NCBI GenBank assembly: GCA_020638155.1 | Contig: JACKJB010000005.1 | Location: forward strand, 5,235 to 69,234 | Direction: 5' to 3' | Source of the DNA: Rhodospirillales bacterium | GTDB lineage: Bacteria > Pseudomonadota > Alphaproteobacteria > Micavibrionales > Micavibrionaceae | DNA: 64,000 nt | Shown: one piece after another, positions 1-16,596 of the stretch | Layout: the number at the start of each line of letters is the position of its first letter | Numbering within the stretch: the first letter of the stretch is position 1 | Translations under genes and position numbers: made by a program | Notes under the pieces: generated by a model | Seen by the model: the letters and a program-made list of their open reading frames with translations, nothing else | Told to the model about the DNA's origin: nothing | Database searches by the model: none

Positions 1-772
1 CGACCCACTGTTCGATCCCCACCCCGTTAGGACTTTCAAGACGGGACACACGAACAACAACAATCGTCACCAGCAGGTTATCAGAGCGCTTCTGCGCCCC
101 CGACTGGTAGGTCAAAACCATCGGGATCTGGACGATCCACTGGTACCGCCCCTGAACGACACCTTCCCGGTCAAGCACCGGGGCACCGCGCGGCGCCGCC
201 GTCACAACCTGCTGATTCGCCTCGACCATCTCGATAATCCGCGACGCCTGCAGTGCTTTGGTAAAGCTTTCCCAGCCACGGCGCGTGAAATTGCGAGACG
301 CTTCCTGAAGACGGCGGCGATAATCGTTAAATCCAAAAGTCATCACCTCGGTCGCCGCCTGAGCCACCCAGGACATCAGCGCCGGCGTACTGAGGTTGGC
401 TTCGTTCAGCGCCACCATCGGTATCAGGCGCCCATCTTCGGTTGTCGCAAAATAACGGTTTTCAGGCTGGTGAATATGAACCACAAACAACATCACACCA
501 ATCAACCCCAAAATCACAAACGTCTGGAGCAAAGCAAGCTTGAGGATGGTGCGGTATCCATCACGATAAAATTCATTACGCACCATTACAGTATTGAGCA
601 TCCCGATATCATTACCCTGCGGCGCCTCTTTCGTGGGCACGGCACCGGGTTTCCCGGCAGGAGCCTTACCCGCCGCCCCCTTGGCAGGCTTAAAACTGCG
701 CGGATTCGCCTTACCACCCGCAGGACGGGGGGGCGCTTTTGGTGATTTCTGAGAAGGTTTGTCCTGAGCCAT
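1..772 (-). CDS. dotI: Type IVB secretion protein DotI/IcmL family (TraM-like), 3' end cut by the window edge
   Basis: My own minus-strand translation from the ATG at 772-770 gives MAQDKPSQKSPKAPP...NEFYRDGYRTILKLALLQTFVILGLIGVMLF (a single TM helix). A periplasmic domain follows, ending ...VRVSRLESPNGVGIEQWV. The FYRDxYR motif plus TM topology is typical of IcmL/DotI. This ORF is absent from the supplied track because it runs off the window. Confidence 0.65.
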   Translation of the reverse strand, partial: MAQDKPSQKSPKAPPRPAGGKANPRSFKPAKGAAGKAPAGKPGAVPTKEAPQGNDIGMLNTVMVRNEFYRDGYRTILKLALLQTFVILGLIGVMLFVVHIHQPENRYFATTEDGRLIPMVALNEANLSTPALMSWVAQAATEVMTFGFNDYRRRLQEASRNFTRRGWESFTKALQASRIIEMVEANQQVVTAAPRGAPVLDREGVVQGRYQWIVQIPMVLTYQSGAQKRSDNLLVTIVVVRVSRLESPNGVGIEQWV

Positions 773-1010: not shown

Positions 1011-2453
1011 ATGGATATGAAAAATATTGCCATACAGGCATGGCGGTTTTTTTCCGGAACAGCACGACAAAAATCGCCAGGACGGAAGCCGGGCGTTTTT
1101 GTGCTGTTGCTTTTCTGTGTGCCTTTAGCTGCTCTTACCGCTTTTCTTGTACCAAATTCCGCTTATTCAGCTTGCGCGAACTGTCCCTGCGTCATCAATC
1201 AGCACAACATTACCCGCAGTCACATTACCAGCCAGCACGGGTTCGGTTTTTTCCTGACCGACCCTGAGGGCCTGGCTCTGGTGACCCCTCATGTCTGTGA
1301 AAGAGGTGCCGGTACGCGCGGATGGATCGGTTATGAAATGTGCCGTCACCGCGAAGAGTTTTTTGTATTCTATTTCTGGAAAGAACACGTGCTGGCCGCG
1401 ATGATGATGATGACCGAACAGCTGGTGACCGGGGCCATGAACCAGATGTTTATCGTCGGATCGTTCTTTGATGCGAAAGAACAGCTGGAAACACAGGAGC
1501 TGTTCCAAAAACTGGACGCCCAGGCCCACCGCGATTACCACCCCAGCTTCGGCATGTGCGAAATCGGCACGATGTCGCGCAGTCTTGGCGCTTCGCAACG
1601 CCGTGGCGAGTATAACGCTTACCTGCTGAGCCAACATATGCAGGACCGCCAGATGCGTACATATAATATGGGGTCTTCCGCCGGTAAAGGTTATGAGATC
1701 GTCAACCGCTGGACGGATTTTAAAGAGACGTTCTGTAACCCACACGATAACGATAACAAAATGATGCCGCCGCGCTCCGATACGGCGATATGTGGCGGGG
1801 CTCCGTTTGAAAAACGGAATGCCGATGTCGATTACACCCGCGCAATCGAGCATCCGCTAACGATCGAGGCCGATTTCAGCAATGGCGGGCTTGAGCCTGA
1901 TGAAGATGTGATCTTCGGCCTGTCAGATAATCTCTTCGGGCACGATGTCTTCGAATATTTTCCTGAAGCGTTTTTCAAACAGGATGATTACGAAGACGAA
2001 TATATGTATGTCCGGTCCATGATCGCAAAACGCAGTGTCGCGCAAAATTCCTTCAGCAATATTGTCGGGATGAAATCACAAGGTAAACCAGAATCAGCTG
2101 TCGTCCGGGATTACATGGAAAAACTTCTGGAACAGCTGGGCGTTACCGATGCAGGGGACAGGCGCAATATCGTTCACGACCTGCCAAGCTATTATGCCCA
2201 GATGGAAATGCTGACGAAAAAACTGTACCAGCGCCCGGAATTTTACACCAACCTGTATGACAAGCCGGTCAATGTCGACCGGAAAATCGCCGCGATGAAA
2301 GCGATCGGCCTGATGCAGAATATGGATCTATTCAAAAGCAAGTTACGAAGCGAAGCTTCGCTTGCTGTTTTAACGGAAATGGAAATCTTCAAAGCACAGG
2401 AAAGCGGCGCGCAGGACCGCCTGACCGGTGCGGACAGTACGGGAATTCAGTAA
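1011..2453 (+). CDS. Paralog 1 of an unnamed secreted protein family (signal peptide, N-terminal CxxCxC cluster)
   Basis: ORF 1008..2453; ATG codons at 1011 and 1017. The Sec-type leader ends ...LVPNSAYSA|CANCPCV. Shares these blocks with the next four ORFs: AAMMMMTEQLV, FFDAKEQLETQELFQ, AHRDYHPSFGMCEIGT, IAKRSVAQNSF, PSYYAQMEMLTKKLYQRPEFYTNLYDKPVNVDRK. Confidence 0.85.
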   Translation: MDMKNIAIQAWRFFSGTARQKSPGRKPGVFVLLLFCVPLAALTAFLVPNSAYSACANCPCVINQHNITRSHITSQHGFGFFLTDPEGLALVTPHVCERGAGTRGWIGYEMCRHREEFFVFYFWKEHVLAAMMMMTEQLVTGAMNQMFIVGSFFDAKEQLETQELFQKLDAQAHRDYHPSFGMCEIGTMSRSLGASQRRGEYNAYLLSQHMQDRQMRTYNMGSSAGKGYEIVNRWTDFKETFCNPHDNDNKMMPPRSDTAICGGAPFEKRNADVDYTRAIEHPLTIEADFSNGGLEPDEDVIFGLSDNLFGHDVFEYFPEAFFKQDDYEDEYMYVRSMIAKRSVAQNSFSNIVGMKSQGKPESAVVRDYMEKLLEQLGVTDAGDRRNIVHDLPSYYAQMEMLTKKLYQRPEFYTNLYDKPVNVDRKIAAMKAIGLMQNMDLFKSKLRSEASLAVLTEMEIFKAQESGAQDRLTGADSTGIQ

Positions 2454-2455
2454 TC

Positions 2456-3976
2456 ATGGCTAAAAAGAGCGTCGCATATACACAGAAAGGCCTCAGGAAC
2501 ACCCTGATGGCCTGCCTGTTTGCGATCTCCGCTCTTTTATTCAACCCGGAGCCGGTGAACGCCGGCTGCGGTGACAACTGCACATGTGTACCAATCGCCC
2601 ATGGTTCCGTGATTCCTTTTCCACCGGGCTTTTCTAAAGGCGACATAGGAAACAACACCGATATCCGTGGCACGATCCGGCAGGAACACGAGATGACAAC
2701 CCGACATATGGATATGGAATTCGACGATATGGAAGAGTTCTTAGTCAACGAATCCAACCCCAGGGACCCGACCCGGATCTGGGGCGGGTATCTCTGGCCC
2801 GCATGGATGATGATGAATGAGCAGCTCGTGCACACGGCCATGTACCAGATGCTGATCCTCGGCAGCCTGCTCGATGCCAAAGCGCAGCTTGAAACCCAGA
2901 CCCTGTTCCAAAAACTGACCAATGAAGCGCACCAGAATTATCATACCGATCACGAAATGTGCGTCGTCGGCACCAATGTTCGCAGTCTGGCCGCCGCTGA
3001 ACGGCGCGCCGAATTCACGACATTCGTTCTCAGCCAGCGCAGCATCGACCGGCAGATGGCCAATCTGAACAGCGCCGCCGCCCGCGGCGAAGATGATGAT
3101 GAATGTTTCCGGCTGCGGCAGTTCCGCAAGCGGTACTGTGATAACCGGGACAATAACGAACATATGCAGTGGATCTGCGATCCGCAGGCTGCCGCTACTG
3201 CGGCTGGCGTACCCTTCCAGCCTTTGCGTCCGGAATGCGTGGCACCAAATATCGCAATTACCAATGAAACAAAGAACAAAGATATAAGTTATGCCCGGAC
3301 GATTGACCGCACAAAAACCCTGAATATCGATTTTGTCGCCCCGGCAGCAACGCCAACCGAAGACGAAGAAGATATTTTTGCGCTGGCCAGCAACCTGTAT
3401 TCGCACGATGTGATGTTCAGGATGCCCGAATCATCCCTGCGCCAGCGGCAAAGCCAGGATGAAATCCTGGATATGCGCGGCATCGTCGCCAAACGCAATG
3501 TCGCCGAACACAGCTTTAATACCATCGTTGGCCTGCGGGCGATGGGGAACGAAGAGTCAAAAGACATTACCTACCCTTATATGAAACTGATTATGGAGCG
3601 GCTTGATATTGGCGATGACAGGGGCTGGCCCGAAGAAGAGCTGGCCCGTTTCCTGAAACCCGAACCAAGCGAGCTTGGCGAGGCTGATGACCCTGATCTC
3701 TGGCGCCCCAGTTATGATGCGCAGATGGAAGTCCTGACCAAACGGCTTTTCCAGTCCCCTGATTTTTACGCCAACCTGTATGACGAGCCGGTCAATGTTG
3801 ACCGTAAATCCGTGGCCCTGCAGGCCATCGGCCTGATGCAGGATTTTGATACATGGAACAGCTACCTGCGCACCGAAGCGATGCTGTCGGTGATCCTGGA
3901 GCTGGAGTTATTGCGCCTGAACAATCAGGTCCAGAACCAGCTGGGCACCGTACGAAGCGGCGGACTGGAGTTGTAA
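2456..3976 (+). CDS. Paralog 2 of the same secreted family (N-terminal CxxxCxC cluster)
   Basis: The ATG lies 2 nt after the paralog 1 stop. Leader ...NPEPVNAG|CGDNCTCV. Blocks: AWMMMNEQLV, LLDAKAQLETQTLFQ, AHQNYHTDHEMCVVGT, VAKRNVAEHSF, PSYDAQMEVLTKRLFQSPDFYANLYDEPVNVDRK. Confidence 0.85.
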   Translation: MAKKSVAYTQKGLRNTLMACLFAISALLFNPEPVNAGCGDNCTCVPIAHGSVIPFPPGFSKGDIGNNTDIRGTIRQEHEMTTRHMDMEFDDMEEFLVNESNPRDPTRIWGGYLWPAWMMMNEQLVHTAMYQMLILGSLLDAKAQLETQTLFQKLTNEAHQNYHTDHEMCVVGTNVRSLAAAERRAEFTTFVLSQRSIDRQMANLNSAAARGEDDDECFRLRQFRKRYCDNRDNNEHMQWICDPQAAATAAGVPFQPLRPECVAPNIAITNETKNKDISYARTIDRTKTLNIDFVAPAATPTEDEEDIFALASNLYSHDVMFRMPESSLRQRQSQDEILDMRGIVAKRNVAEHSFNTIVGLRAMGNEESKDITYPYMKLIMERLDIGDDRGWPEEELARFLKPEPSELGEADDPDLWRPSYDAQMEVLTKRLFQSPDFYANLYDEPVNVDRKSVALQAIGLMQDFDTWNSYLRTEAMLSVILELELLRLNNQVQNQLGTVRSGGLEL

Positions 3977-5364
3977 TGAGAAACAATATGAAGCACGGCA
4001 AAACAAGAATATATTCTTCGAGAACTGTCATGCTCCGCATGTTTATGCTTGCGGCTCTCGTCCTGTTTTCTTTTGCCTCCCAAAGCTGGGCCGCATGTTG
4101 TCCTTGCCCGGGATGTAATCAATGCGTCTTTCCGCAACGTGACGCGACAATCGCACATATTCAGACCGAACATAATACGACCCGCAATTTTATCACCCAG
4201 CAGTTCCGGTTTCATCAGAACTGGCTGTTCGGTGCCAATACATTCTACGGTGGAGCACGAGACAGCTTTTTCGAGTTACATGTCCTGCCGGCCCTGATGA
4301 TGATGACCGAGCAACTGGTTACGACCGGCATGGAGCAAATGTTTATTCTCGGCACGTTTTTCGATGCCAAGATCCAGCTGGAAACCCAGCGCCTGTTCCA
4401 GGAAAAAGAAGCCGAAGCCCATAAAGATTATCATCCGTCTTTCGGCATGTGCGTCATCGGCACCAATGTCCGCAGTATGGCCGCCGCCGACCGTAACGGC
4501 GAGTATACCAGCTATGTGCTGAGCCAGCGGTCGCAAGACCGCCAGCTCGGAATCTATAGCGGCCAGGCCGCTTATAGCGCCGAAATGGACCGGCGTGGCA
4601 GGATCGAACAGTTTAAAAAACGCTACTGCGATACCGATAATAACAGCCAGGATTTAACCGAGCTGTGCGACGCGGGTAAAGCGCCTGCGGCGACTGTCAA
4701 CAGCGATATCGATTATATGCGCACCGTCGATATGAACCGGACGCTGAATATCGATTTTACCGACGATGTCGCCACAAATGATGAAATCGATGTGCTGGCG
4801 CTGGCCAGCAACCTGTTTTCCCATGAGGTCATGAATAAGACGAACTGGACCACAGGGGAGATGGAATCAGCCGAAGGTCCTTATCTGGACCTGCGCTCTA
4901 TCGTTGCCAAGCGTAGTGTCGCTGAGAATTCATTCAATGCCATTATCGGTCTGAAAGCGCAAGGTACTCCCATTTCCGAACAAACGATCCTGTTTACCGA
5001 AAAAGTGCTGGAACAGTTCGGCGTTAATGACGGTGATGACAGGCTGCGCATGATTGGCGGGGTTCTCGGTGACCGTGAAACTCCGAACCGGCGCCCAAGC
5101 TATTTCGCTCAGTTAGAAGTCCTGGCGCAGAAGATTTATCAGGACCCCGAATTTTATACCAACCTGTATGACAAACCGGCCAATGTGCAGCGTAAGGAGG
5201 TCGCCATGCAGGCGATCAATCTGATGCTGGAGCGCGACATGTATAAAAACGAGCTGCGCAGCGAAATGGCCCTGTCGATATGGCTTGAAATGGAACTGAT
5301 GAAATACCAGACCGATATTCAGAACCGCCTGAGTTCGCTGAAGGAAAAATATGAACAAAACTAG
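3976..5364 (+). CDS. Paralog 3 of the same secreted family (N-terminal CCxCxxCxxC cluster)
   Basis: I placed the start at the ATG of a TAATG overlap with the paralog 2 stop (3974-3978), in frame with track ORF 3853..5364. Leader MRNNMKHGKTRIYSS...FASQSWAA|CCPCPGCNQCV. Blocks: ALMMMTEQLV, FFDAKIQLETQRLFQ, AHKDYHPSFGMCVIGT, PSYFAQLEVLAQKIYQDPEFYTNLYDKPANVQRK. Confidence 0.85.
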   Translation: MRNNMKHGKTRIYSSRTVMLRMFMLAALVLFSFASQSWAACCPCPGCNQCVFPQRDATIAHIQTEHNTTRNFITQQFRFHQNWLFGANTFYGGARDSFFELHVLPALMMMTEQLVTTGMEQMFILGTFFDAKIQLETQRLFQEKEAEAHKDYHPSFGMCVIGTNVRSMAAADRNGEYTSYVLSQRSQDRQLGIYSGQAAYSAEMDRRGRIEQFKKRYCDTDNNSQDLTELCDAGKAPAATVNSDIDYMRTVDMNRTLNIDFTDDVATNDEIDVLALASNLFSHEVMNKTNWTTGEMESAEGPYLDLRSIVAKRSVAENSFNAIIGLKAQGTPISEQTILFTEKVLEQFGVNDGDDRLRMIGGVLGDRETPNRRPSYFAQLEVLAQKIYQDPEFYTNLYDKPANVQRKEVAMQAINLMLERDMYKNELRSEMALSIWLEMELMKYQTDIQNRLSSLKEKYEQN

Positions 5365-6868
5365 GCAGAAATATCAGAGCCGCTTTCAGAAGGCAGCGCG
5401 ATCGCTAAAAAAACTGAGTGTTTTAGCGATCCTGATTGGTTTTGCATTTATTTTTCTTGCCGCAAAACAGCCGGCCCAGGCTGCGTGCGGGTGCTGTGAT
5501 TGCTGCGTCAGTGTCGTTATCCCGCACCACGAAGTCACCCGCCAGGCCGTAACCGACGAACATGTTCATCTGCGTGTTGATGCGTTCGGCGTATCGGCCG
5601 GTATTCTCGCCTTCCCGGCCCGGCCCAACCCGCCACCGAATTTCTGGCGACTGCAGCATTACGAGAAATGGCTTTTGGACGTTTTCTTCGACGATTACAT
5701 TCGCCCGGCCCTGATGATGATGAGCGAACAGCTAACCTCGGTCATGATGGAACAGATGCTGATTACCGGCACGTTTTTCGATGCCAAGAAACAGCTGGAA
5801 ACACAGCGCCTGTTCCAGGAACTCGAAGCGCGTACACACCGCGATTACCACCCCAGTTTTGGTATGTGCGAAATCGGGACCAGCACCCGCAGTCTTGCTG
5901 CCGCCGAATTTAACAGTGATCTGTCTATGATGGTTCTGAATAAACGCTTCATGGACCGCCAGCTCGGGAACGGCTCTTCCGTTGGCGCTAGCGGACCGGG
6001 GATCGACCGGATCAGTAACGATGTCGCCGGACTAAAAAGCCCGCATAACCGTTTAGGATTTTTCCTGAACAATACCTGTGATGATAACGATCTGGACAAG
6101 GTTCTGGGAAGAGCCGCGACCGGGATGTTCCTGTGCGAAAACCCGCCCGAGGCTAATGGCTGGGTTAACCGCGATATCGACTGGAACAATACGGTCATGA
6201 GTCCGCGAACGGTCAATGTCGAATTCGACCGTCCCAATACGTCTGATAACCGCCGGGTTTTTGAAATGGCGAACTACCTTTACGGGCATACCGTCTTTAC
6301 CCGTCCCGAAGGGGAGATGCTGGGTTACGAACAGAACCAGGACAATTATCTCGATTCCCGCGCCGTTATCGCCAAACGCAGCGTCGCCCAGAACAGCTTT
6401 GATTCTATTATCGGTCTGAAATCCCGCGGGACGCACCGGGACGACCCCGGAGCCCGGCCGATCAGCTCGGAAGATACGGGCGAGTTCATGCGCTTTTTCC
6501 TGGTCGAGTTGGGCTTCCCGGAAGGGGATAAAAACCCGTATCACCGCTATATGTTCCACAAAAACGAGCTGAAAAACGAACCGCCACTTGACGGCCAGAC
6601 CGTCCAGATCAGCTATTACGGGCAGATGGAAGTGCTGGCGAAAAAGATTTACCAGCGCCCCGAATTTTACACGCAATTATACGACAAGCCGGTGAACGTC
6701 AAACGTAAGGCGGCGGCGATGCAGGCGATCAAACTGATGCTGGATCGTGATATTTTCGACAGCCAGTTACGGGCAGAAGCGATCATGTCGATGATCCTTG
6801 AGCTGAAAGTCGTAGAGGAACAACAGAATATCGAGAACGCGCTCGGCATCATGAAAGAGAAGTTTTAG
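5351..6868 (+). CDS. Paralog 4 of the same secreted family (N-terminal CxCCxCC cluster)
   Basis: The ATG overlaps the paralog 3 end by 14 nt. Leader ...FLAAKQPAQAA|CGCCDCCV. Blocks: ALMMMSEQLT, FFDAKKQLETQRLFQ, THRDYHPSFGMCEIGT, IAKRSVAQNSF, ISYYGQMEVLAKKIYQRPEFYTQLYDKPVNVKRK. Confidence 0.85.
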   Translation: MNKTRQKYQSRFQKAARSLKKLSVLAILIGFAFIFLAAKQPAQAACGCCDCCVSVVIPHHEVTRQAVTDEHVHLRVDAFGVSAGILAFPARPNPPPNFWRLQHYEKWLLDVFFDDYIRPALMMMSEQLTSVMMEQMLITGTFFDAKKQLETQRLFQELEARTHRDYHPSFGMCEIGTSTRSLAAAEFNSDLSMMVLNKRFMDRQLGNGSSVGASGPGIDRISNDVAGLKSPHNRLGFFLNNTCDDNDLDKVLGRAATGMFLCENPPEANGWVNRDIDWNNTVMSPRTVNVEFDRPNTSDNRRVFEMANYLYGHTVFTRPEGEMLGYEQNQDNYLDSRAVIAKRSVAQNSFDSIIGLKSRGTHRDDPGARPISSEDTGEFMRFFLVELGFPEGDKNPYHRYMFHKNELKNEPPLDGQTVQISYYGQMEVLAKKIYQRPEFYTQLYDKPVNVKRKAAAMQAIKLMLDRDIFDSQLRAEAIMSMILELKVVEEQQNIENALGIMKEKF

Positions 6869-6876
6869 ACAGGAAT

Positions 6877-8145
6877 ATGGAGAGCAGGATAAAACAAAGT
6901 ATGAGGTTTTTGCAATGCGCCGCGCGGCGCATGGTGCTGCTTTTTGTCATGCTCGGCTTATTGATTATGCCGGCGGCGCAAATCGCCCGCGCATCACATC
7001 TTGACGCCCCCGTTCTTGGCAACGCCGACGGCGCGCTTGACAGTAAGCCGCATGTCAACGGTATATACCGCGCCATGCGGGATAACTGGCTCGCGGCATG
7101 GATGATGATGACCGAGCAGTTTGTCTCCGTGATGATGCAGCAGATGTTCATTGTCGGAACATTCCTTGATGCCAAGCAGCAACTCGAAGTCCAGCGCCTG
7201 TTCCAGCAGCTTGAAGCCGAAGCGCATAAGGATTTTCACCCGGGCTTCCAGATGTGTGTCTTTGCCACCAACGTCAAAAGTCTCGGTGATGCCGATTTCC
7301 GCTCATGGGAAAACAGCATGATGCTGGATACCATTATCGAAAAACGCGAACATCTGCATGCAGGATTATCGACAGCGCCGGGGATTCCCGCCGATATCAC
7401 ACACCGGATCAAGATGTTTAAAGACATCTATTGTGATCTCGACCAGAATAACCGGCAGGATGAGCTGCTTTGCGATGGCACCGAAGGGCCGTTCAACCGC
7501 ATGACAAAAGATGTCGATTACCCAAGGGTCATCGACAATGTCTATACGATTGACGATGTCAACTTTACCGACGGGGCACATACCGATACGGAAAAAGACA
7601 TTATGGCGCTGTCCCGCAATCTTTACGCTTCCCCGGTGTTCGATTTCATGCCGGAACAGCTCATCAATGAAACCGCCGGACAAAATCTGTTCATGGAAAC
7701 CCGGTCCATCCACGCCATCCGCAGTGTTGCACGGCGCAGTTTTACCAATATTGTCGGCCAGAAAGCCGAAGGTGATCCGGCGGAAATATATGAAGTCCGC
7801 CCATTCATGTTCGGGATTGTCCATGAACTGGGCGTCCCGGTTGACGAACTGATCGATTTCCTCGGTGAGAATCCGAGCTATTTCGCCCAGATGGAAGTCC
7901 TGACCCGTAAAATTTATCAAAGCCCTGATTTCTTTACAAACCTGTACGATAAACCGGCAAACGTCCGCCGGATGGGGGTCGCCCTGCAGGCGTTTGAGCT
8001 GATGCAGGACCGCGACCGTTACGAGGCAGCCCTGCGCCGAGAAATGCTGATTTCCCTGATCCTGGAGCTTAAGCTTCGTCATTATCAGGAAAACGTCAAC
8101 GACGTCCTCATGACCTCGATCAGTCACAAACCCGACGGCCGATAA
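6877..8145 (+). CDS. Paralog 5 of the same secreted family (shorter; lacks the N-terminal Cys cluster)
   Basis: ATG 8 nt after the paralog 4 stop, preceded by AGGAA. Leader ...LLIMPAAQIARA. Blocks: AAWMMMTEQFV, FLDAKQQLEVQRLFQ, AHKDFHPGFQMCVFAT, PSYFAQMEVLTRKIYQSPDFFTNLYDKPANVRR. There is no Cys cluster after the leader. Confidence 0.85.
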   Translation: MESRIKQSMRFLQCAARRMVLLFVMLGLLIMPAAQIARASHLDAPVLGNADGALDSKPHVNGIYRAMRDNWLAAWMMMTEQFVSVMMQQMFIVGTFLDAKQQLEVQRLFQQLEAEAHKDFHPGFQMCVFATNVKSLGDADFRSWENSMMLDTIIEKREHLHAGLSTAPGIPADITHRIKMFKDIYCDLDQNNRQDELLCDGTEGPFNRMTKDVDYPRVIDNVYTIDDVNFTDGAHTDTEKDIMALSRNLYASPVFDFMPEQLINETAGQNLFMETRSIHAIRSVARRSFTNIVGQKAEGDPAEIYEVRPFMFGIVHELGVPVDELIDFLGENPSYFAQMEVLTRKIYQSPDFFTNLYDKPANVRRMGVALQAFELMQDRDRYEAALRREMLISLILELKLRHYQENVNDVLMTSISHKPDGR

Positions 8146-8146
8146 C

Positions 8147-8224: not shown

Positions 8225-11020
8225 ATGGGCTTAAGTGGCTTGGATTCAGCATTATCAGGCCTTCGCGTGGCGCAGCAGCAGCTGAGCGTCATTGCGAATA
8301 ACGTCTCGAACGTCAGCACCGAAGGCTATACGCGGAAAATTTTGCCGCAGCAAACCGTCGCGATCGAAGGGCAGGCCGTCGGCGTTTCGGCGCGGCCGAT
8401 TATCCGCAATGTCGATCTTAACTTAGAGCGTGATTTCTGGACCCAGGTCAGTACCGTTAACGCCCTGGAAGTCAAAGCGAAATACCTGGACCGGATCCAG
8501 AATTTCCACGGCTCTCCCGACCTTGAAGTTTCGATTGCCGCCGAGCTCGGCAAACTGCGTGACACATTTGCCGCGCTGGCCGACAGCCCTGAAGATAACT
8601 TCCTGCAGCGCGAAGTCGTCGACCAGGCGGCGCTGCTGGCCGGGAAAATCAATAAATTCGCGGCCCTGATTACCGAAATGCGCAATGACGCGCAGGATGA
8701 AATCGAAGCCACGATCGACAGCATCAATACGCGGCTGGAAAATATTGCCGAGCTGAACCACCAGATCAAATTCAACACAGCCAGTGGCAAAACCACAGCA
8801 GAGCTGGAAGACCAGCGCGACCAGATTATCAAAGAACTTTCCGCCGATATCGATATCAGCTTTTTCACCCGCGGCGATGGCGTCATGGTGGTGCAAACCT
8901 CAACCGGAGTCCAGCTTGCCGATGAACGCGCTGAATCGCTTTATTACAACAGAACGCCGGTAGGCCCAAGTACCTATTATCCCGACCCGAACAATCCAAT
9001 CGCGAACGGCATTTTTGTCGGCGGCAGCCCTGCCGATAACCCGGTCACGATCGATATCACCCAAAGCGGGATCAGCGGCACCCTCGGCGCGCTTTTAGAG
9101 CTGCGCGATGAAATCCTGCCGGAACAGCAGGCGATGCTTGATGAACTCGCGCATAAAATGTCCACCCGCTTTGCCGAACAGGGGCTGATCCTGTTTACCG
9201 ATGCCAGCGGACAAGTCCCGCCGGACAGCAGCGCGAACGTTATCGGCACAGTCGATCTGACGGCGCTGGGCGGGCTTGATATCGCAACCGGGCCGAATAA
9301 CCTGTTCACCGTTACCCTGAATAATGGCGGCGCTTCCCCTGCCGCTGTTTCATTTCAGGTCGACCTGACCATCGGCAACACGCCGGCGCTGCTCGCTGCG
9401 GAGATTAACAACCAGATTTCGCAATTGCCCGATGCCTATAGCGGCACAATCGCAACGATCGATGCCAACGGGTTTTTAAATATCACGTCCGATTACGACA
9501 TCACCATTAATGCAAACGGCGCGGGTGAAATCGGCGATGCCGGGCTTGCGGTACTCGGCCTGAGCCGCGGTACTGAATATGCCGCGCCCAAAACAAATCC
9601 TCTGACCCCGGTGCCTTATGTCGGTTACGCTTCTGAAATTCGTGTTAATCAACTGGTGCTCGATGATAACCGTCTTGTACAGCAGGGTACGATCGGGACA
9701 GACCTGCCGGTCCAGCAAGGCTCAAACGAAGTGATCCGCCGGATCGTCGAGTTTGTGTTCGGTGATGTCGAGTTCCAGGAAGCCGTCGGCTCTGTTGACC
9801 TGCGTTCTTCCGCGCTTGGTGATTCATTGCAGGATTATCTTGGCATTTACTCGCAGAACAGCATTACAGGTACGCTTGATTTGTCTTCTTACGGCGATGT
9901 CCAGGCTTTGATTAATGCAGGCGGAGAAACATTCCAGCCGCCGACCGGCCCTGTGCTTGACCAATTCACCCTGACTTTCGATGATCCGCGCACTGGTTTG
10001 CCCGCGCAGACTTACTATCTCGATCTTGAAGAAATCCAGACAAACTTTCCTATTGGCGGTGCTATTACTAACGCAGCAGACCAGATCGCAGCAGCGATCA
10101 ATGCCTTACCGCTTGCCGGGAGCGCTCTTAGCGATCCGCTACCGCCTGATGCCGCTTTTGACGTACAGGCCAGTGTCAACGCCTATGGCCAACTGGTTAT
10201 AGAATCACGCGCGAACATTACAATTGATGCCAGCTTTCCAGCCGGGGAAACTTTTCCTCCCGCCGTCACGCCAGATGGCGGGATGGGACAGGACGGGCTT
10301 GATTTCCTCGGCCTGACACAAGGCACATATCAGACAACCGATCCTTATATTGACATACAGATCGGCAACGATCCGCCGGTAAGGGTGACGATTGAGCCGG
10401 GCGATGATGAAACCGACCTGTTCAATAAGCTGAACTTTGCAATCGCGCCGCCGGGCGTTCCAGGCCTGGCGATTGACGACAGCCTGACAGACCCGGCCAG
10501 CGACGGTTTTTTAAGATTGCGCCCGGGCGATGATCCGAACAATCCCGGCTTTGGCGGGGATCTGAAAATTGTCGGCGGCCCGTTTGTTTCCGAAGGCGGC
10601 ACCAGCGGGACAGCCCTTGGCACCGATATTATTACCGCGCTGTTCGGCGTTCCCAACCCGGTTGTCGATGTGCCTCATGAGATTTCAACCGGGACGGGCG
10701 CTTATGAATCGTTCCGCCGCGACCGGCTGGGTCCGAATGCGCTGCTGAGCACCGGGATCATCAGTTCAACCAACCTGATCGATTTTGCGCAGAAAATGGT
10801 GAACCGCCAGACATCGGAAAGCATCGCGATCGATGCGCAGATCCGCGATGAAACCTCGTTCCGCGACCTGCTGCAACGCAGGCTTTTGGATGAGTCCGGC
10901 GTCAATATCGAAGAAGAGCTGTCGCAGTTAATTGTCGTGCAAACCGCATTTGCCGCGGCGGCGCGGGTGATTTCCGCGATCGATGAAGAATTTCAGGAAC
11001 TGCTGAATGCAGTGGCCTAA
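8225..11020 (+). CDS. flgK: Flagellar hook-associated protein 1 FlgK (long form, 931 aa)
   Basis: The N-terminus MGLSGLDSALSGLRVAQQQLSVIANNVSNVSTEGYTRK and the C-terminus EEELSQLIVVQTAFAAAARVISAIDEEFQELLN are the canonical FlgK terminal helices. A large central insertion accounts for the length. Confidence 0.92.
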   Translation: MGLSGLDSALSGLRVAQQQLSVIANNVSNVSTEGYTRKILPQQTVAIEGQAVGVSARPIIRNVDLNLERDFWTQVSTVNALEVKAKYLDRIQNFHGSPDLEVSIAAELGKLRDTFAALADSPEDNFLQREVVDQAALLAGKINKFAALITEMRNDAQDEIEATIDSINTRLENIAELNHQIKFNTASGKTTAELEDQRDQIIKELSADIDISFFTRGDGVMVVQTSTGVQLADERAESLYYNRTPVGPSTYYPDPNNPIANGIFVGGSPADNPVTIDITQSGISGTLGALLELRDEILPEQQAMLDELAHKMSTRFAEQGLILFTDASGQVPPDSSANVIGTVDLTALGGLDIATGPNNLFTVTLNNGGASPAAVSFQVDLTIGNTPALLAAEINNQISQLPDAYSGTIATIDANGFLNITSDYDITINANGAGEIGDAGLAVLGLSRGTEYAAPKTNPLTPVPYVGYASEIRVNQLVLDDNRLVQQGTIGTDLPVQQGSNEVIRRIVEFVFGDVEFQEAVGSVDLRSSALGDSLQDYLGIYSQNSITGTLDLSSYGDVQALINAGGETFQPPTGPVLDQFTLTFDDPRTGLPAQTYYLDLEEIQTNFPIGGAITNAADQIAAAINALPLAGSALSDPLPPDAAFDVQASVNAYGQLVIESRANITIDASFPAGETFPPAVTPDGGMGQDGLDFLGLTQGTYQTTDPYIDIQIGNDPPVRVTIEPGDDETDLFNKLNFAIAPPGVPGLAIDDSLTDPASDGFLRLRPGDDPNNPGFGGDLKIVGGPFVSEGGTSGTALGTDIITALFGVPNPVVDVPHEISTGTGAYESFRRDRLGPNALLSTGIISSTNLIDFAQKMVNRQTSESIAIDAQIRDETSFRDLLQRRLLDESGVNIEEELSQLIVVQTAFAAAARVISAIDEEFQELLNAVA

Positions 11021-11038: not shown

Positions 11039-12115
11039 ATGACTTTTGTATCGACATTGGGACAATCGCTTGACCAGATCGAGCGCATTAAAATCACGCA
11101 GTTGCAGCTGGCCAGTTTCCAAAGCCAGATCGCGACCGGCAAAAAGACACAGACCTTTAGCGGGCTCGGCAATGATGTGATCGCGTCCAAGCGGGCGCGG
11201 GAAAATTTCGCCAAACTGGATAACTACGTCAATAATATCGATATCGCCGACCGCCGCATAAAGATGATGTTTTCTGCGCTGGAAGAAATAAAAAACCAGG
11301 CCGAAGATGTCCTGAACGCAATTGAAATCCAGACGCAACAGGGCGAATACGAAATTGAGGCCGTCAGCGATCTTGCCCGCAATACGGCGGACTTCCTGCG
11401 CGATCTTATTAACACCCGCGATGGCGACCGCTATTTGTTCGGCGGCGCGGAGACCGTCGATCCGCCGCTTTCCGGCAGCGGCACACTGGAAACCTATATG
11501 CAAAAGCAGCTGAATGACTGGGTCACAGCAGCAATCGATACAGACCAGCTCATTGCAAGTTACGGTGATAGCGCAGCCCTGACCGATACGATCATCGGTT
11601 ATTCCGCGACCTTAAGCAGCGGCAGCGCCAAGAATGTTTATGTCCGCGTCGAGGATTACACCGAGATCAATTACACCGTCTTTGCCAACCATGACGGCGT
11701 CCGCGATATCCTCGCCGGGGTTAATATGCTGGCGCAGATTGACCAGGTGCTTGATGAAGTCACGCTTGATCCTGATGATCCGGCAACAACCATCACGGCA
11801 CCGGGGGCAACGCAGCAGGAACAGAACGATAATTTCTACAAGTTCTTTAATGACATGGCGGCGATGATGAACCGCGCGCTGGATGCGATCGACAGCGAGC
11901 TGTATTCGCTCAGCCAGAGTCAGGCGCAGCTTGATAAAATCAAGCAAAGCCACAAGCTTGACCAGAATATCCTGCAGGATACGATCAGCGAAGTGGAGGA
12001 TGCCGATATGAACGAAGTCGCTGTCAAGCTGAACGCGCTGCAAATCCAGCTCGAAGCGTCGTACCGGGTTACGGCGTCGATTTCGAGCCTGAGCCTTGTG
12101 AACTTTATCAGCTAA
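11039..12115 (+). CDS. flgL: Flagellar hook-associated protein 3 FlgL
   Basis: Immediately downstream of flgK, with RBS AAGGAG. Has flagellin-like N- and C-terminal helices (...LQLASFQSQIATGKK...; ...MNEVAVKLNALQIQLEASYRVTASISSLSLVNFI). Confidence 0.88.
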   Translation: MTFVSTLGQSLDQIERIKITQLQLASFQSQIATGKKTQTFSGLGNDVIASKRARENFAKLDNYVNNIDIADRRIKMMFSALEEIKNQAEDVLNAIEIQTQQGEYEIEAVSDLARNTADFLRDLINTRDGDRYLFGGAETVDPPLSGSGTLETYMQKQLNDWVTAAIDTDQLIASYGDSAALTDTIIGYSATLSSGSAKNVYVRVEDYTEINYTVFANHDGVRDILAGVNMLAQIDQVLDEVTLDPDDPATTITAPGATQQEQNDNFYKFFNDMAAMMNRALDAIDSELYSLSQSQAQLDKIKQSHKLDQNILQDTISEVEDADMNEVAVKLNALQIQLEASYRVTASISSLSLVNFIS

Positions 12116-12121: not shown

Positions 12122-13534
12122 TTACTGCGTAGACAGCGAATAATTCTCGATCACCAGCACAGACGGGCCGCCCGGCAGATTCGGATGCAGCCGCCCCAGC
12201 GGACGCGGGTCCGAATCGTTGTAGCGCATAAGGATATTGGTCACGACATCGGGGAACGTGCCGTGCATTTTTACCGCTTCCGGCAATTCGTAATCATAAG
12301 CCGAATTCCACAGCATCGCGACATTGGCTTCATTGGCCCATCGGCTGAGAACGCTTTTCAGACCGGTCCCTTTTTCAGCCTGCCAAAAGCGGATTTCCAG
12401 CGGATCAAGCACGGGGCCGCGGGCCGCGGCACTGTCCGTTGCCGGCGCCATAGAAGGCGTCATCGCAAGCGGCAGGGCCACAGGTCCGCCGGGCATTTCT
12501 TTTGCGGGGGCCTTCATCATGCCGGGCGGCAAAGACGGGGGCGCGGCAAGCGGCGGGGGAGCAGGGGCATCCATCATGACCGCCAGATCCGCCGGGTCGT
12601 CAAATTCGGAAACTTCTTCAGGCTGCTCCGGCCCCTGCGGGAACAACGGTTCCGGACGCTGGCGGCGCGGGTATGATTGCACCGCATCGTCCTGTTCGGC
12701 CGCATCCATCATCATCGGCGTATCCTCGGCCATAATGACCGGGACATTCATCGGGTCAGCGTCCGCCATCACCGGTTCATATGCAAAAGCTTCATTCACG
12801 AGAGGCGGAGCGGGCATGTCCGGGGTTAGTTGCGGCATGGCCACCGGGTGACCCGCTGGCGGCATCATCATCGGCGGGACACTATCCGTTACGACCAGCG
12901 GATTATCCATCATAACCGGAACCGTTTCGGGTTCCCGCTTACGGATCCAGACGCTGTTATCGCTGATAACGACTTCCATATCCTGCGGCCGGACGGCATC
13001 GGACAGGACTTCATCCCATGGCTTGCCGCCGCTCCAGGAAACACGCAGGGCCGGATCGATATTCGGATCGAAAGCATAAGAAAAACGCGGCGGCACGATC
13101 TGGCGCATCGCCATCACCAGCGGAATATCTGTGCCGAAACCGACCGCTTCTTCATAAACCGGGACCGCCGGAACGGCCGGTGCCGCCGGGGCGGCCTCGG
13201 CCATGTCAGCCGGGTTCTGCGCGAACGGATTTTCCTTTAAGACCGGGATCACAGACGGCGCAGCCGCTCCCGGCATCATCGGTTCGCTGGTAATTTCAGG
13301 GTGGGCATAAGGATCGATGCGCGGCTGGGACCCCGGCGCGCCGGTTTTGTGCATTTCCATCGTCATTGTCGGCGGGACAACAGGCACCATCGCCGGCTTG
13401 TTTGCCGGCGGGGTCCATTCAAATCCGGCATATGCCGGGACCGTAACCGCCAAAACCAGGGCAAAAATTCCCGCCGTTGCGGTTTTGCCTTTTTTAAGAA
13501 AATATCTGTTTACCATCGTCGCTTTCCTTACCAT
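12122..13534 (-). CDS. Secreted Pro/Met-rich protein with two TcpQ/PilL-like domains
   Basis: Signal peptide ...ALVLAVTVPAYAG. The central block GFGTDIPLVMAMRQIVPPRFSYAFDPNIDPALRVSWSGGKPWDEVL and the C-terminal block LKSVLSRWANEANVAMLWNSAYDYELP...VIENY resemble the TcpQ / R64 PilL C-terminal domain. It is the last gene of the dotDCB-icmT strand block. The start could instead be M7 (13516). Confidence 0.6.
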   Translation of the reverse strand: MVRKATMVNRYFLKKGKTATAGIFALVLAVTVPAYAGFEWTPPANKPAMVPVVPPTMTMEMHKTGAPGSQPRIDPYAHPEITSEPMMPGAAAPSVIPVLKENPFAQNPADMAEAAPAAPAVPAVPVYEEAVGFGTDIPLVMAMRQIVPPRFSYAFDPNIDPALRVSWSGGKPWDEVLSDAVRPQDMEVVISDNSVWIRKREPETVPVMMDNPLVVTDSVPPMMMPPAGHPVAMPQLTPDMPAPPLVNEAFAYEPVMADADPMNVPVIMAEDTPMMMDAAEQDDAVQSYPRRQRPEPLFPQGPEQPEEVSEFDDPADLAVMMDAPAPPPLAAPPSLPPGMMKAPAKEMPGGPVALPLAMTPSMAPATDSAAARGPVLDPLEIRFWQAEKGTGLKSVLSRWANEANVAMLWNSAYDYELPEAVKMHGTFPDVVTNILMRYNDSDPRPLGRLHPNLPGGPSVLVIENYSLSTQ

Positions 13535-13657: not shown

Positions 13658-13960
13658 TCAGCCATAATCGCGCATGCGGCGATACGCATAGGTAAACAGG
13701 GCATTACGGCGATCACCGACCATCCAGGACCGCATAGAGCGCAACGCCGCCGGATATGTCAAACCAAACCGCTCAAGGATATAAAAGAAGATGACGATCA
13801 ACAGGGTCAACACAATCGTTACAGGGCGGGCATAAACCAGCAGGATAAAAAACGGCAGGGCCGCTCTTGCATCGAGACCGAAAAACCGTACCGGACGCAT
13901 CGTATTCCGCCAGTGCCAGTTCTTCTTCTCAATCTCAAGATCGTCTTGTGCTGTCGCCAT
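13658..13960 (-). CDS. icmT: Type IVB secretion protein IcmT (TraK-like)
   Basis: A 100-aa, two-TM protein. HWRNTMRPVRFFGLDARAALPFFILLV...ILERFGLTYPAALRSMRSW matches the IcmT signature. It lies directly downstream of dotB. Confidence 0.8.
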   Translation of the reverse strand: MATAQDDLEIEKKNWHWRNTMRPVRFFGLDARAALPFFILLVYARPVTIVLTLLIVIFFYILERFGLTYPAALRSMRSWMVGDRRNALFTYAYRRMRDYG

Positions 13961-14050: not shown

Positions 14051-15217
14051 TCACTCGCCGCCGCCACCGGTACTGGATGCCAGCATCAGATATGCCCTGC
14101 GGTCGATATGCCCGGCTTCGAACGCCAACCGCGCCGATTGGGACATGGTGCGGCCGTAATTCGGGATCGCCCGCTGGATATTCGGTCCCCATTCCTTGAA
14201 ATCCATATCCAGCAGCTTTTCGCGGATTTCATCAGGGAATGTCATCCATTCGCGAATCCCTATACGGCCCCCGCCGATTTTGGACACGAGGGATTGCGTG
14301 ACGATCATCCTGATCGTTTCCATCAGCGCATAAGCCCGCTCGGCCCGTTCGTCGGTTTCAAAAGTCGAAATCATCCGCTGGACCGTTGCGGCAACGCCAA
14401 TCGTGTGCGTCGTCGTATAGACCGTGTGCCCGGTCTGGGCAGCTTCAATCGAGGCCGAGATGGTTTCCCTGTCCCGCGATTCCCCAACCAGAATCACTTC
14501 AGGCTTGCGCCGCAGCGCATTCCTGACACCGCGATCAAATGACGGCAGGTGGCGGGGAATTTCCGTTTGCGCCACAAGAGAGCGCGGACTTTCGATCGTA
14601 TCGTACACATATTCAATCGGTGCCTCATAAGTCAGCATCTTACCGCAGCCATGCGGCCGCTCCAGCAACATCCGGCACCCGGCTGCGAGTAATGTCGTTT
14701 TCCCTGACCCGGTCGGCCCGGTAATAATCACCATTCCCTGGCGCGGGGCCCAGTGGTTGATGACGTGCTCTTCGACATTCAACGCCTTCATGGTCGGCGG
14801 TTCGGTCGGCAATACCCGCATTGTTACCTGCGCCGCATCCCGGCCACGGGAAAGGATCGCGGTAATATTGACCCGGAACCGAATGCGCGTATAGCGATCG
14901 GGCCGGACTTCGTAAGACAGATCAAGGTCGTTGGCCCCGGCAAGACGGGCCTGTGCCTCGGGTCCGTAAATTCTTATCAGGACGGCCGCCATATCCGCAG
15001 CATCCAGAGTCCTGAATGTAGCAGGATAAAGGACGCCGTCAATTTCCTGGTAAACCGGACGGTCTGACTGGAAAGTAATATCGGAAGCATTCTGTTTAAC
15101 CGACCACAGCAGGAATGGATCGAGCGTTTCACCAGTAAAACGGCCATGCTCATCAGGCCATGTCTGGGCCTTGTTTTCCTTGCCTTTAAGAAGGCTTATC
15201 GGTTTGCGGGCTGCCAT
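14051..15217 (-). CDS. dotB: Type IVB secretion ATPase DotB (PilT/VirB11 superfamily)
   Basis: Walker A motif ITGPTGSGKTT and PilT-like Asp and His boxes (LVGESRD, TGHTVYTTTHT). Sits in dotD-dotC-dotB synteny and overlaps the dotC end by 22 nt. Confidence 0.85.
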   Translation of the reverse strand: MAARKPISLLKGKENKAQTWPDEHGRFTGETLDPFLLWSVKQNASDITFQSDRPVYQEIDGVLYPATFRTLDAADMAAVLIRIYGPEAQARLAGANDLDLSYEVRPDRYTRIRFRVNITAILSRGRDAAQVTMRVLPTEPPTMKALNVEEHVINHWAPRQGMVIITGPTGSGKTTLLAAGCRMLLERPHGCGKMLTYEAPIEYVYDTIESPRSLVAQTEIPRHLPSFDRGVRNALRRKPEVILVGESRDRETISASIEAAQTGHTVYTTTHTIGVAATVQRMISTFETDERAERAYALMETIRMIVTQSLVSKIGGGRIGIREWMTFPDEIREKLLDMDFKEWGPNIQRAIPNYGRTMSQSARLAFEAGHIDRRAYLMLASSTGGGGE

Positions 15218-16035
15218 TTTTCCGTCCCCGGTATGAATTCGGGCACACCCGTAATTTCAACGGCCCGGTCACCAACCCGCATTTTCGACCCTCCGCCGGT
15301 CACACCCCGGTCAATCTGCAGGGCATAAGGCGGGGAGACCATCCCTTGCGCCAGCAACATGCGGTAACGGACCATCCCCTGGTAATGCGCCGTCAACTGG
15401 TCGAGATCCTGCTGGAATATCTCGTTGGCCTGGTCAACACCTTGTTCCCAGCCTTCTAAAACCCAATCCATCCAGAAAGCGCGCTCATAATCATCATTCG
15501 GGCGCAGGATATCGGGCGGCGGCGTCACTTCACCCCATTCACGCCACAGGTAATTGCGCCAGTCACGGGCGGCACTGACGATATTGGCATTACGGCTGAT
15601 ATTATAGACCCGGTCGGCCACGGCAGCTTCCTGACCGCCGGTATCGATAATCATCGCGTTGGTTTGCTCGGATACAATCGGCGGTTCAATCAAAAGACCG
15701 GATGGCGCAGGGATCAGAAGCTGGCGGAAATCGAATACTTTATCGAGATAGCTCGAACGCGTCTTAAGTTCCTCGCGGATATTATAAGTGCGCCAAGCCA
15801 GACCGCCGCGCGCGCCATAGGACAACGCCGCCTCACGCATCGCATCCAGACGGATATCGATCGGCATCCCCGAAGCATCATCGACGACCATATTGAGTTT
15901 CGGCACCATTTGCAGTTCAAACAGCGCCGGCGGAGATGAAAAATCCTCGTCTTCCGACATCGCTGCCGCAACCTGTCCGGCCAGACAAGGGACCGACAAA
16001 CCCAGCACCGCGATGAATAGCAGAAAACGTTTCAT
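15196..16035 (-). CDS. dotC: Type IVB secretion outer-membrane-complex protein DotC (TraI-like)
   Basis: Signal peptide MKRFLLFIAVLGLSVPCLAG. Motifs as I remember them for DotC: DIRLDAMREAALSYGARGGLAWRTYNI, WRNYLW, YRMLLAQGMVSPPY, GVTGGG. Confidence 0.85.
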   Translation of the reverse strand: MKRFLLFIAVLGLSVPCLAGQVAAAMSEDEDFSSPPALFELQMVPKLNMVVDDASGMPIDIRLDAMREAALSYGARGGLAWRTYNIREELKTRSSYLDKVFDFRQLLIPAPSGLLIEPPIVSEQTNAMIIDTGGQEAAVADRVYNISRNANIVSAARDWRNYLWREWGEVTPPPDILRPNDDYERAFWMDWVLEGWEQGVDQANEIFQQDLDQLTAHYQGMVRYRMLLAQGMVSPPYALQIDRGVTGGGSKMRVGDRAVEITGVPEFIPGTEKWQPANR

Positions 16036-16044: not shown

Positions 16045-16596
16045 TTACCCTCCCACGCCCGTATTGGGCGCATAGTTAATTTCAACGATCTTACGGCGGC
16101 CATCGACACGGACATCACCACGGACGCCGAGCTGTAGCCCCAAGCTGCGCAGGACATCAATGACCGGCATATTTTCAACATTGACGGACACCACAACCGG
16201 AACCGGCGGCGGAGTCCCGATCACCTGGAACGCGTACCCGGACCGGCTTGCCAGTTTTTGCGCGATCGGCTCAACCGGGCCGACCCAGTTCACCGTAATC
16301 GCCCGGCGCAGTTCGACCGGCGCGTTTTCAATCGGGGAAACCGAAACTTCTGGAGAGCGGGCCTGCTCCACAGCCGCCAGCGTTTCCAGCGCCACAGAAG
16401 CGCGGTCAGCCGCATCCGCCAGCATCATCGAGACCTTATCGGGAGACGCGACCAACTGCGGATGATCCCCTTCCACAGGTTCGGAGTAAGAGGACGAGCA
16501 CGCCGTCAGCGCCGCCATCATTGCAACAGCGGTATACAGCCGCCCTTTGCGTAGTATTTCTATAGTTTTGAGCATTAACATGCGATAACACCGCAA
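16045..16596 (-). CDS. dotD: Type IVB secretion lipoprotein DotD (TraH-like)
   Basis: Lipobox ALTAC|SS. The C-terminal secretin-N0-like block ITVNWVGPVEPIAQKLASRSGYAFQVIGTPPPVPVVVSVNVENMPVIDVLRSLG matches DotD. Several in-frame Met codons make the exact start uncertain. Confidence 0.85.
   Translation of the reverse strand: MRCYRMLMLKTIEILRKGRLYTAVAMMAALTACSSSYSEPVEGDHPQLVASPDKVSMMLADAADRASVALETLAAVEQARSPEVSVSPIENAPVELRRAITVNWVGPVEPIAQKLASRSGYAFQVIGTPPPVPVVVSVNVENMPVIDVLRSLGLQLGVRGDVRVDGRRKIVEINYAPNTGVGG

Follow-up and report, generated by a model that had tools for sequence, protein, structure and literature searches.

VirB5, TrwJ, TrbJ, TraW (of R64), and IcmX have been equated in a 2025 review, as the pentameric stalk or pilus-tip protein of type IV secretion systems (T4SSs) (PMC12624023). 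In the in situ structure of Legionella, five N-terminal helices of IcmX form a central bundle, and its extended middle domains touch DotA at the base (10.1101/2025.06.23.660953). Here we describe five tandem paralogs, P1 to P5, near the start of a 64,000-nucleotide stretch of Micavibrionaceae DNA (contig JACKJB010000005.1 of assembly GCA_020638155.1; this whole stretch is the window, and positions count from its first letter). These paralogs are, with high confidence, a divergent and multiplied branch of the TraW/IcmX class, and four of them carry a dense cluster of cysteines directly after the signal peptide. Our overall model is a TraW/IcmX tip with a disulfide, or possibly metal, staple at its target-facing apex, and we give this model a probability of roughly 0.5.

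Relationship of P1 to P5 to the TraW/IcmX class

The array consists of five co-oriented open reading frames (ORFs) at 1008-8145. We distinguish type A copies, which carry the cysteine cluster, from type B copies, which come last in the array and lack both the cysteine loop and the first helix.

1017..2453, plus strand: P1, type A TraW/IcmX-like paralog (family hidden Markov model [HMM] score, 547 bits; alternative starts at 1008 or 1011)
2456..3976, plus strand: P2, type A paralog (family HMM, 535 bits)
3976..5364, plus strand: P3, type A paralog (100% match to protein P0001; examined by AlphaFold2, Foldseek, and the TraW-family HMM)
5351..6868, plus strand: P4, type A paralog (family HMM, 499 bits)
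6877..8145, plus strand: P5, type B paralog (HMM match begins at position 80)

The stop codon of P2 overlaps the start of P3 (TAATG). P3 is the NCBI hypothetical protein H6867_02025, which is annotated there from a later start; this 100% match comes from a metagenome-assembled genome labeled "Rhodospirillales bacterium," and the relatives that carry a genus name are Micavibrio. Pairwise identity among the five is 36 to 44%, and conservation starts at an MMMTEQ motif about 100 residues into the proteins.

Standard annotation gives these proteins no name. No Pfam family matched any of P1 to P5 at E ≤ 1, including the VirB5/TrbJ models, and the NCBIfam scan was likewise empty. Searches of PDB sequences with 5-sequence and 121-sequence profiles returned no matches. 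Every source-named homolog of P3 goes under the name "hypothetical," and all 120 listed matches lack a Pfam domain; PF28212, which is present on every listed TraW, is missing from each of them in the precomputed Pfam annotation, so the family is a divergent branch that lies outside the curated threshold.

The relationship appears once profiles are compared. The family profile aligned with a single IncI1 TraW, taken from an annotated plasmid, was not significant in hhalign (probability, 1.6%), but the motifs LETQRL...AH...C and YC...C were aligned, and we therefore built a diverse TraW profile. An exhaustive search with TraW yielded 139 representatives, 70 of them full-length relatives that entered the profile. 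Against this profile, the family reached a probability of 98.4% (E = 8.4e-15; 311 columns), and an HMM built from the same 70 relatives scored family members at 30 to 61 bits, with P3 at 39.7 bits. The family and TraW have three cysteines in common, one of which occupies the single invariant column of the TraW alignment. When the TraW profile was run against PDB sequences, only low-complexity noise was returned and IcmX was not reached.

Predicted structure may point the same way. The AlphaFold2 model of P3 is all-helical (predicted local distance difference test [pLDDT], 85.6); its signal peptide and low-confidence cysteine loop are followed by an N-terminal helix (48-85), long helices (98-151 and 156-191), a middle region of mixed character, and a C-terminal helix of 54 residues. 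In a Foldseek search of the PDB, this model had a single match at probability 1.00, chain AP1 of 9ngy (E = 0.047), with a template modeling (TM) score of 0.27 to 0.30, which is weak. The independent model of P5 has a signal peptide, a disordered stretch at 31-58, and then a long helix that corresponds to the second helix of P3; it too retrieved 9ngy as its unique probability-1.00 match (E = 0.016). The 9ngy entry is the in situ DotA-IcmX protochannel of Legionella, and chain AP1, with 417 residues, is consistent with IcmX. No further TraW/IcmX candidate is visible in the loci that hold these arrays. Kinship to VirB5 itself would run by way of IcmX and TraW, as judged from position and architecture.

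The family resembles TraW and IcmX in its Sec signal, a length of about 400 to 470 amino acids, an all-helical make-up in which long helices at both termini surround an "extended" middle domain, the three conserved cysteines, and a place among dot/icm (tra) genes; a subset of TraW proteins also has CxxC directly after the leader. It differs in going unrecognized by Pfam and NCBIfam, in forming sets of 2 to 5 tandem paralogs rather than one gene, in enlarging the cysteine cluster to 3 to 7 cysteines, and in having an obligatory extra paralog without the N-terminal helix. It is also chromosomal and restricted to one order, the Micavibrionales, with an order-wide distribution among obligate epibiotic predators. 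The preliminary description of this DNA missed the class and also the secretion context, which gives the cluster a location and, plausibly, a job. With this assignment, no fewer than 1,688 database proteins become readable as components of a TraW/IcmX-class tip.

Cysteine clusters in the window and across the family

The clusters, as read from the translations, are as follows.

1173..1190, plus strand: P1 cluster C-ANC-P-C (CxxCxC), followed by VINQH
2567..2587, plus strand: P2 cluster C-GDN-C-T-C (CxxxCxC), followed by VPIAH
4096..4125, plus strand: P3 cluster CC-P-C-PG-C-NQ-C, five cysteines, in a part of the model with low pLDDT
5486..5506, plus strand: P4 cluster C-G-CC-D-CC, five cysteines

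The preliminary description had placed 3 to 5 cysteines near the mature N-terminus of P1 to P4, and we find 3, 3, 5, and 5 within 6 to 10 residues. Its peptides and coordinates are exact for P1 (SACANCPCV, 1167-1193) and P2 (AGCGDNCTCV, 2561-2590). For P3 (AACCPCPGCNQC) and P4 (AACGCCDCC) the peptides are right but the coordinates were 1 nucleotide out of frame; the correct ones are 4090-4125 and 5480-5506. The leader it had described before each cluster is also there: in each of P1 to P4, a positively charged n-region leads into a hydrophobic h-region that ends at a small-x-small site. We judged signal peptides by inspection and simple rules (n-region, h-region, and AxA), and by these rules all three elements occur in all five proteins and family-wide. 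Cleavage is predicted at AYS/A or YSA/C in P1, VNA/G in P2, SWA/A in P3, and AQA/A in P4 (slash, cleavage site), so that the clusters begin 1 to 2 residues past an AxA-type signal peptidase I site. As had been noted, no cysteine follows the signal peptide of P5, and its shortening by about 60 amino acids corresponds, in the AlphaFold model, to the missing cysteine loop and N-terminal helix. One earlier claim does not hold, namely, that divergence is limited to the cysteine segment; the whole of the first ∼100 residues is poorly conserved among the five paralogs.

The clusters exceed chance. Given about 1% cysteine elsewhere, three or more in a fixed 10-residue window have a probability of about 1e-4 by our own arithmetic, and four of the five paralogs have them at the same spot. 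Each of P1 to P4 has exactly 8 cysteines in the mature protein, and the array as a whole has 35.

The preliminary description proposed comparing orthologs to learn whether the cluster is conserved. A homology search with P3 found at least 1,688 proteins at E ≤ 1e-3 among 8,000 candidates scored, and a scan of one genome per species found 303 relatives, of which we analyzed the best 78 loci. Nearly all of these are labeled Micavibrio, Alphaproteobacteria, or, in the old taxonomy, Pseudobdellovibrionaceae, and they hold tandem arrays of 2 to 5 copies. What is conserved is the presence of the cluster at its position; the number and spacing of the cysteines vary. The outcome that the preliminary description had named as a refutation, orthologs that do not conserve the segment at all, was thus not observed. 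At least two cysteines lie within 32 residues past the h-region in 172 of the 182 non-terminal copies whose N-terminus was aligned (mode, 3), most commonly as CxxCxC (29 copies), CxxC (27), CCxC (17), or CxxxCxC (11). The cluster and the helix motif that follows it, H..TR..I..EH, are conserved over about 180 copies. Among last-in-array copies, 60 of 72 have no cysteine in the same segment.

This division is also phylogenetic. In a neighbor-joining tree of 290 copies, the last-in-array copies, and no others, make up a single clade of 73 tips. These type B copies, whose HMM match starts at about position 75 to 88, are always the last gene of the array, preceded by 1 to 4 type A copies. We infer that type B is an ancient sister form, without helix or cluster, that must have a different structural part. 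In the lineage of the window (∼19 genomes), each array position forms its own orthologous clade, with 18 of 22, 19 of 22, 16 of 18, and 19 of 24 tips of the clades for positions 1, 2, 3, and 4 of 5 coming from the matching position; P1 falls in the "position 1 of 5" clade. Because each position is a clade, the paralogs must be old and individually retained. Other lineages hold stable 2+1 or 3+1 sets. A strict rule in which five paralogs make one pentamer was considered and rejected, since arrays have 2 to 5 copies, with stable 2+1, 3+1, and 4+1 sets by lineage.

Two variations on this architecture occur. Many type B copies are 600 to 1,000 amino acids long, with an extra N-terminal region, and a few type A homologs have a ∼250-amino-acid cysteine-rich N-terminal domain with the string SESGG.Y...GRYQF, which may be reminiscent of lytic transglycosylases. 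Examples of these variations are L009:12626-15250, L014:11387-13201, L025:11353-14421, and L082:15779-17653, numbered within related loci, and proteins P0005, P0009, and P0015. The long extensions and the fused cysteine-rich domains had zero Pfam matches.

Tandem amplification of a tip gene has a precedent. In the type IVA Trw system of Bartonella, trwJ (VirB5) and trwL (VirB2) are tandemly amplified, which may allow a wider range of surfaces to be targeted. The likeness lies in the amplification and diversification of a VirB5-class tip or adhesin gene. The Trw system differs in being type IVA, in co-amplifying trwJ with trwI and trwH, and in serving host cell adhesion rather than bacterial predation; an N-terminal cysteine cluster is not known there.

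A smaller form of the cluster occurs in TraW itself. About 19 of the 70 diverse plasmid-type TraW relatives (P0246, P0270, P0254, P0330, P0350, and others) have AxA/x-C-D-G-C-V-V (or CC) directly after the leader, for a total of 5 rather than 3 cysteines; they include proteins annotated as conjugal transfer protein TraW in Pseudomonas and Trinickia. On this basis, an N-terminal cysteine motif recurs in the TraW class and is enlarged in the Micavibrionales, and homology of the motif itself between the two is plausible. We found no description of this motif at the TraW N-terminus in the papers surveyed, and it seems to have been overlooked. In its CDGC form it also occurs on common conjugative plasmids of the Pseudomonas type, and it is relevant to the way in which the VirB5/IcmX tip is stabilized, gated, or engages the target membrane.

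Position and chemistry of the clusters

Where would the clusters sit in an assembled tip? The helix order of the P3 model puts the start of the mature chain at the far end from the middle domain, near the turn between helices 2 and 3. That turn holds Cys159, which is invariant in the family and, in the single-sequence alignment, pairs with TraW Cys108, the only invariant TraW column. By analogy to the IcmX bundle, the cluster would lie at the target-facing apex, with the clusters of neighboring subunits meeting there.

A sequence of steps can be proposed on this basis. Each protein would be exported by the Sec pathway and cut by signal peptidase I after AxA, leaving cysteine at +1 to +3 of the mature chain. 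The cluster would then cap the N-terminal helix, which in the VirB5/IcmX pentamer is "projected out" toward the recipient, so that the clusters would converge at the distal apex. In the oxidizing periplasm, they would most likely form a small disulfide knot, helped by the DsbG/DsbC-like isomerase of the locus. Such a knot could be intra-chain, possibly tying the N-terminus to the invariant cysteine of the helix 2-3 turn, or inter-chain, and would stiffen and lock the tip, as a closed protochannel, until prey contact.

A disulfide knot is the chemistry we favor over a metal site, at close to even odds. The reasons are that the proteins are periplasmic, that the locus encodes a DsbG equivalog, that DotA is disulfide-rich, with five disulfides (10.1101/2025.06.23.660953), and that the cysteine count is biased toward even parity. 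Among type A copies, 118 have an even total of mature cysteines and 60 have an odd one, and outside the cluster the number in type A copies is nearly always 3. A rule that all cysteines are paired was tried and rejected, since one third of the copies are odd and the window array totals 35.

The DsbG/DsbC-like protein is a candidate folding factor for the clusters. Other T4SSs with cysteine-rich periplasmic parts likewise have an oxidoreductase that is encoded with the machine or needed by it, as with TrbB (DsbC-like) of the F plasmid, alongside TraN, TraU, and TraH, or Legionella DsbA2, alongside Dot/Icm and DotA; Jameson-Lee 2011 is cited in this connection (PMC12624023). The present case differs in that the cysteines lie in a 6- to 15-residue N-terminal peptide rather than spread through a domain.

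Several observations weigh against our model. The fold similarity to IcmX is low in absolute terms (TM 0.27 to 0.30), the significant hhalign match to TraW does not extend over the N-terminal ∼85 residues, and the apex position rests on published VirB5/IcmX descriptions and helix topology, with a pLDDT of ∼50 in the cysteine loop. With respect to the disulfides, one third of the copies are odd, and the parity P value of 1.6e-5 is inflated because the sequences are phylogenetically related. TraW relatives (3 or 5 cysteines) and type B copies (3 cysteines) always leave one cysteine unpaired per monomer, and local disulfides fit poorly with cysteines that are directly adjacent (CC) or very tightly spaced. 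E. coli DsbG keeps single cysteines reduced, which fits a thiol or metal role too. The pattern C-x2-3-C-x-C-x4-H, found in 32 of 58 copies of its class, is a classic four-ligand metal set. Finally, truncated IcmX (∼165-466) is what Legionella releases, so N-terminal processing is possible (10.1101/312009).

The metal set leads to the alternative that we regard as possible but rather unlikely, in which the cysteines and the conserved histidine five residues on stay reduced and bind zinc, copper, or iron at the apical tip, which the metal would sharpen or stabilize, much as the zinc site of PAAR does for the type VI spike. The three-cysteine, one-histidine pattern occurs in 24 of 42 CxxCxC copies and 8 of 16 CxxxCxC copies, P1 and P2 included, and the clusters of P4 (CGCCDCC) and P3 (CCPCPGCNQC) are metallothionein-like. 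Thiolate clusters typically vary in spacing while staying rich in cysteine, as is the case here; ions reportedly stabilize the VirB5 pentamer (PMC12624023); and a DsbG-type reductase or isomerase in the locus could keep the thiols reduced. However, Sec-exported proteins fold in an oxidizing periplasm, where cysteine-ligated metal sites are uncommon, and a metal site gives no reason for the 118-to-60 parity bias. The CCxC and CxxC classes also lack the histidine, and the plasmid TraW form has only two cysteines. The comparison with PAAR/VgrG of type VI systems, whose shape has been likened to that of the VirB5 pentamer (PMC12624023), extends to a rigid, pointed, possibly ion-stabilized cap at the target-facing end of an injection machine that depends on contact and to multiple alternative paralogs per genome. 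It does not extend to the unrelated beta-structure fold, the cytoplasmic assembly, or the zinc bound mainly by histidine and cysteine of a folded domain rather than by a cysteine-rich peptide at the N-terminus.

We consider it improbable that the motif is a redox-sensitive latch, in which CxxC at the N-terminus of the helix, a thioredoxin-like geometry, would hold the protochannel closed until reduction or thiol-disulfide exchange on prey contact opened it; in another version, it would form a covalent link to a protein of the prey surface. The commonest core is CxxC, located at the start of the N-terminal helix, an odd cysteine is left over in many copies, and the resting DotA-IcmX protochannel is closed, so that host contact must bring about a rearrangement (10.1101/2025.06.23.660953). 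Yet the motif has no thioredoxin fold around it, nothing points to a reductant at the contact site, and the variable spacing (CC, CxC, and CxxxC) argues against a tuned redox pair, which leaves the latch a pure inference.

Somewhat less probable again is that the segment is clipped after export, as a transient folding or targeting element. The cysteine loop is predicted to be disordered, and the IcmX fragment that both Legionella and Coxiella release spans approximately residues 165-466 (10.1101/312009). The in situ IcmX structure, however, has the N-terminal helices as the pentamer core, and conservation of the cluster and the H..TR..I..EH motif across ∼180 copies would be unexpected for a discarded peptide.

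Lipidation, which the preliminary description had raised as a degenerate lipobox with cysteine at +1, and which would make the first cysteine an acylation site and membrane anchor, is largely refuted by the sequences, and we think it very unlikely. At -1 and -2, P1 to P4 do have small residues, a permissive PROSITE-like pattern accommodates P3, and R64 TraW is named "lipoprotein" in one UniRef entry. But the strict lipobox [LVI][ASTVI][GAS]C occurs in only 3 of 179 unique N-termini, none of them from P1 to P4, and the permissive pattern occurs in 11 of 179, P3 alone among the four. Leucine is at -3 in only 9 of about 180 cases; instead, -3 is mostly alanine and -2 is often bulky, the AxA signature of signal peptidase I. 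The first cysteine floats: counted from the closest site with small residues at -3 and -1, it is at +1 in 66, at +2 in 77, and at +3 in 23 of the 179 N-termini (166 in all), and in others it lies beyond. IncI1 TraW itself has no N-terminal cysteine, IcmX is described as a soluble periplasmic protein, and type B copies and most TraW relatives share the fold yet have no cysteine here. Given the +1 to +3 placement and the rarity of lipobox fits, cleavage by signal peptidase I would leave the cysteines among the first mature residues.

The surrounding type IVB locus and its possible use in predation

The array lies within a Dot/Icm-like type IVB locus, whose other genes in the window are as follows.

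1..772, minus strand: dotI/icmL, 5' part, divergent from the array (Pfam T4BSS_DotI_IcmL, E = 9.3e-66)
8225..11020, plus strand: flgK, context, probably not part of the secretion machine (NCBIfam flgK_ends, 252.9 bits against a cutoff of 170.75; Pfam FlgK_D1)
11039..12115, plus strand: flgL-like or flagellin-family gene, context (Pfam Flagellin_N and Flagellin_C; NCBIfam matches all below cutoffs)
12122..13534, minus strand: TcpQ-domain protein, 470 amino acids, with TcpQ at the C-terminus only (Pfam TcpQ, E = 2.6e-13; present in 57 related loci)
13658..13960, minus strand: icmT-like gene (ORF; the identical gene in locus L004 carries PF28014, IcmT_2)
14051..15217, minus strand: dotB-like ATPase (Pfam T2SSE, E = 5.9e-34; IncI TraJ matches 47 loci by tblastn)
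15196..16035, minus strand: dotC/traI (Pfam T4SS_TraI, E = 2.4e-80)
16045..16596, minus strand: dotD (Pfam DotD, E = 3.1e-37)
17147-18253, minus strand: 368-amino-acid protein with no family match, a conserved gene of the locus
18362..19222, minus strand: DsbG/DsbC-family periplasmic thiol:disulfide interchange protein with a CPHC site (NCBIfam DsbG equivalog, 130.6 bits against a cutoff of 124)

The order, dotI, then P1 to P5 with flgK and flgL, then the tcpQ-like gene, icmT, dotB, dotC, dotD, and, farther on, the dsbG-like gene, is conserved across the Micavibrionales. Related Micavibrio loci read DotG(TrbI)-DotH-DotI, array, FlgK-FlgL, and TcpQ-IcmT-DotB-DotC; DotG, DotH, and DotO occur in related loci without being among the window genes listed above. 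DotI stands beside the array in 68 of 82 related loci, and FlgK is likewise present in 68 of the 82. IncI TraN, TraJ, TraM, TraI, TraO, and TraU match these loci directly by tblastn, and TraY had no match within the ∼10-kb flanks. The dsbG-like gene is two genes beyond dotD, and the order DotD, 368-amino-acid gene, DsbG, and FIST recurs in locus L011. The 368-amino-acid protein and the 470-amino-acid TcpQ-domain protein are perhaps further machine components.

The flgK and flgL genes could suggest that the paralogs are flagellum-associated, since they are co-oriented with these genes and directly upstream (same strand, with an 80-nucleotide gap to flgK) in an arrangement kept in 65 to 68 of 82 loci, but we reject this as very improbable because the paralogs are homologous to TraW and have IcmX as their best, if weak, fold match, because they have Sec signal peptides, whereas flagellar axial proteins leave by the flagellar type III pathway, and because in L011 the array lies between dotI and tcpQ-dotB without flgKL (in L007, flgKL is inverted). 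M. aeruginosavorus ARL-13 has a single annotated FlgK (GMV2433), which lies far from its other flagellar genes.

The locus is conserved in Micavibrio-type genomes (window positions 1-19222 and loci L001, L002, L011, and L023). In the complete M. aeruginosavorus chromosome (L023), it reads DotI, two paralogs, FlgK-FlgL, and TcpQ-DotB-DotC-DotD. The genome paper for this species (2011) reported no evidence for a type III or type IV system (PMC3189940), and none of the papers found in our literature searches on Micavibrio and type IV secretion described this one. Epibiotic predators of the Micavibrio type thus have a conserved, overlooked type IVB system that is Dot/Icm-like, which differs from the earlier report.

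It is tempting to connect this system to predation. In a speculative reading, which we consider unlikely as it stands, the Micavibrionales would use the chromosomal type IVB machine as a conduit for prey attack or "leeching," with a hetero-oligomeric paralog tip whose cysteines fuse it into one disulfide- or metal-bonded point that pierces or docks to the prey envelope. The tip in the window genome would then consist of four cysteine-tipped subunits and one helix-less subunit, five in all, and paralog number and cysteine pattern might tune prey range; this part, too, is conjecture to which we attach a low probability. The reading nevertheless offers a concrete, testable candidate for how these predators breach and drain their prey, namely, a contact-dependent injector with multiplied, cysteine-tipped tip proteins.

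Two other features of the window lie away from the locus. The stretch at 30001-32100 has low GC content (0.44, versus ∼0.55 around it) and is perhaps a small insert of foreign DNA; within it, a NERD-domain gene lies on the minus strand at 31013-32086. At 41571-46662 (minus strand), two adjacent genes for DUF6782 putative metallopeptidases are followed by a gene for an 828-amino-acid protein without a Pfam match, and GC content falls.

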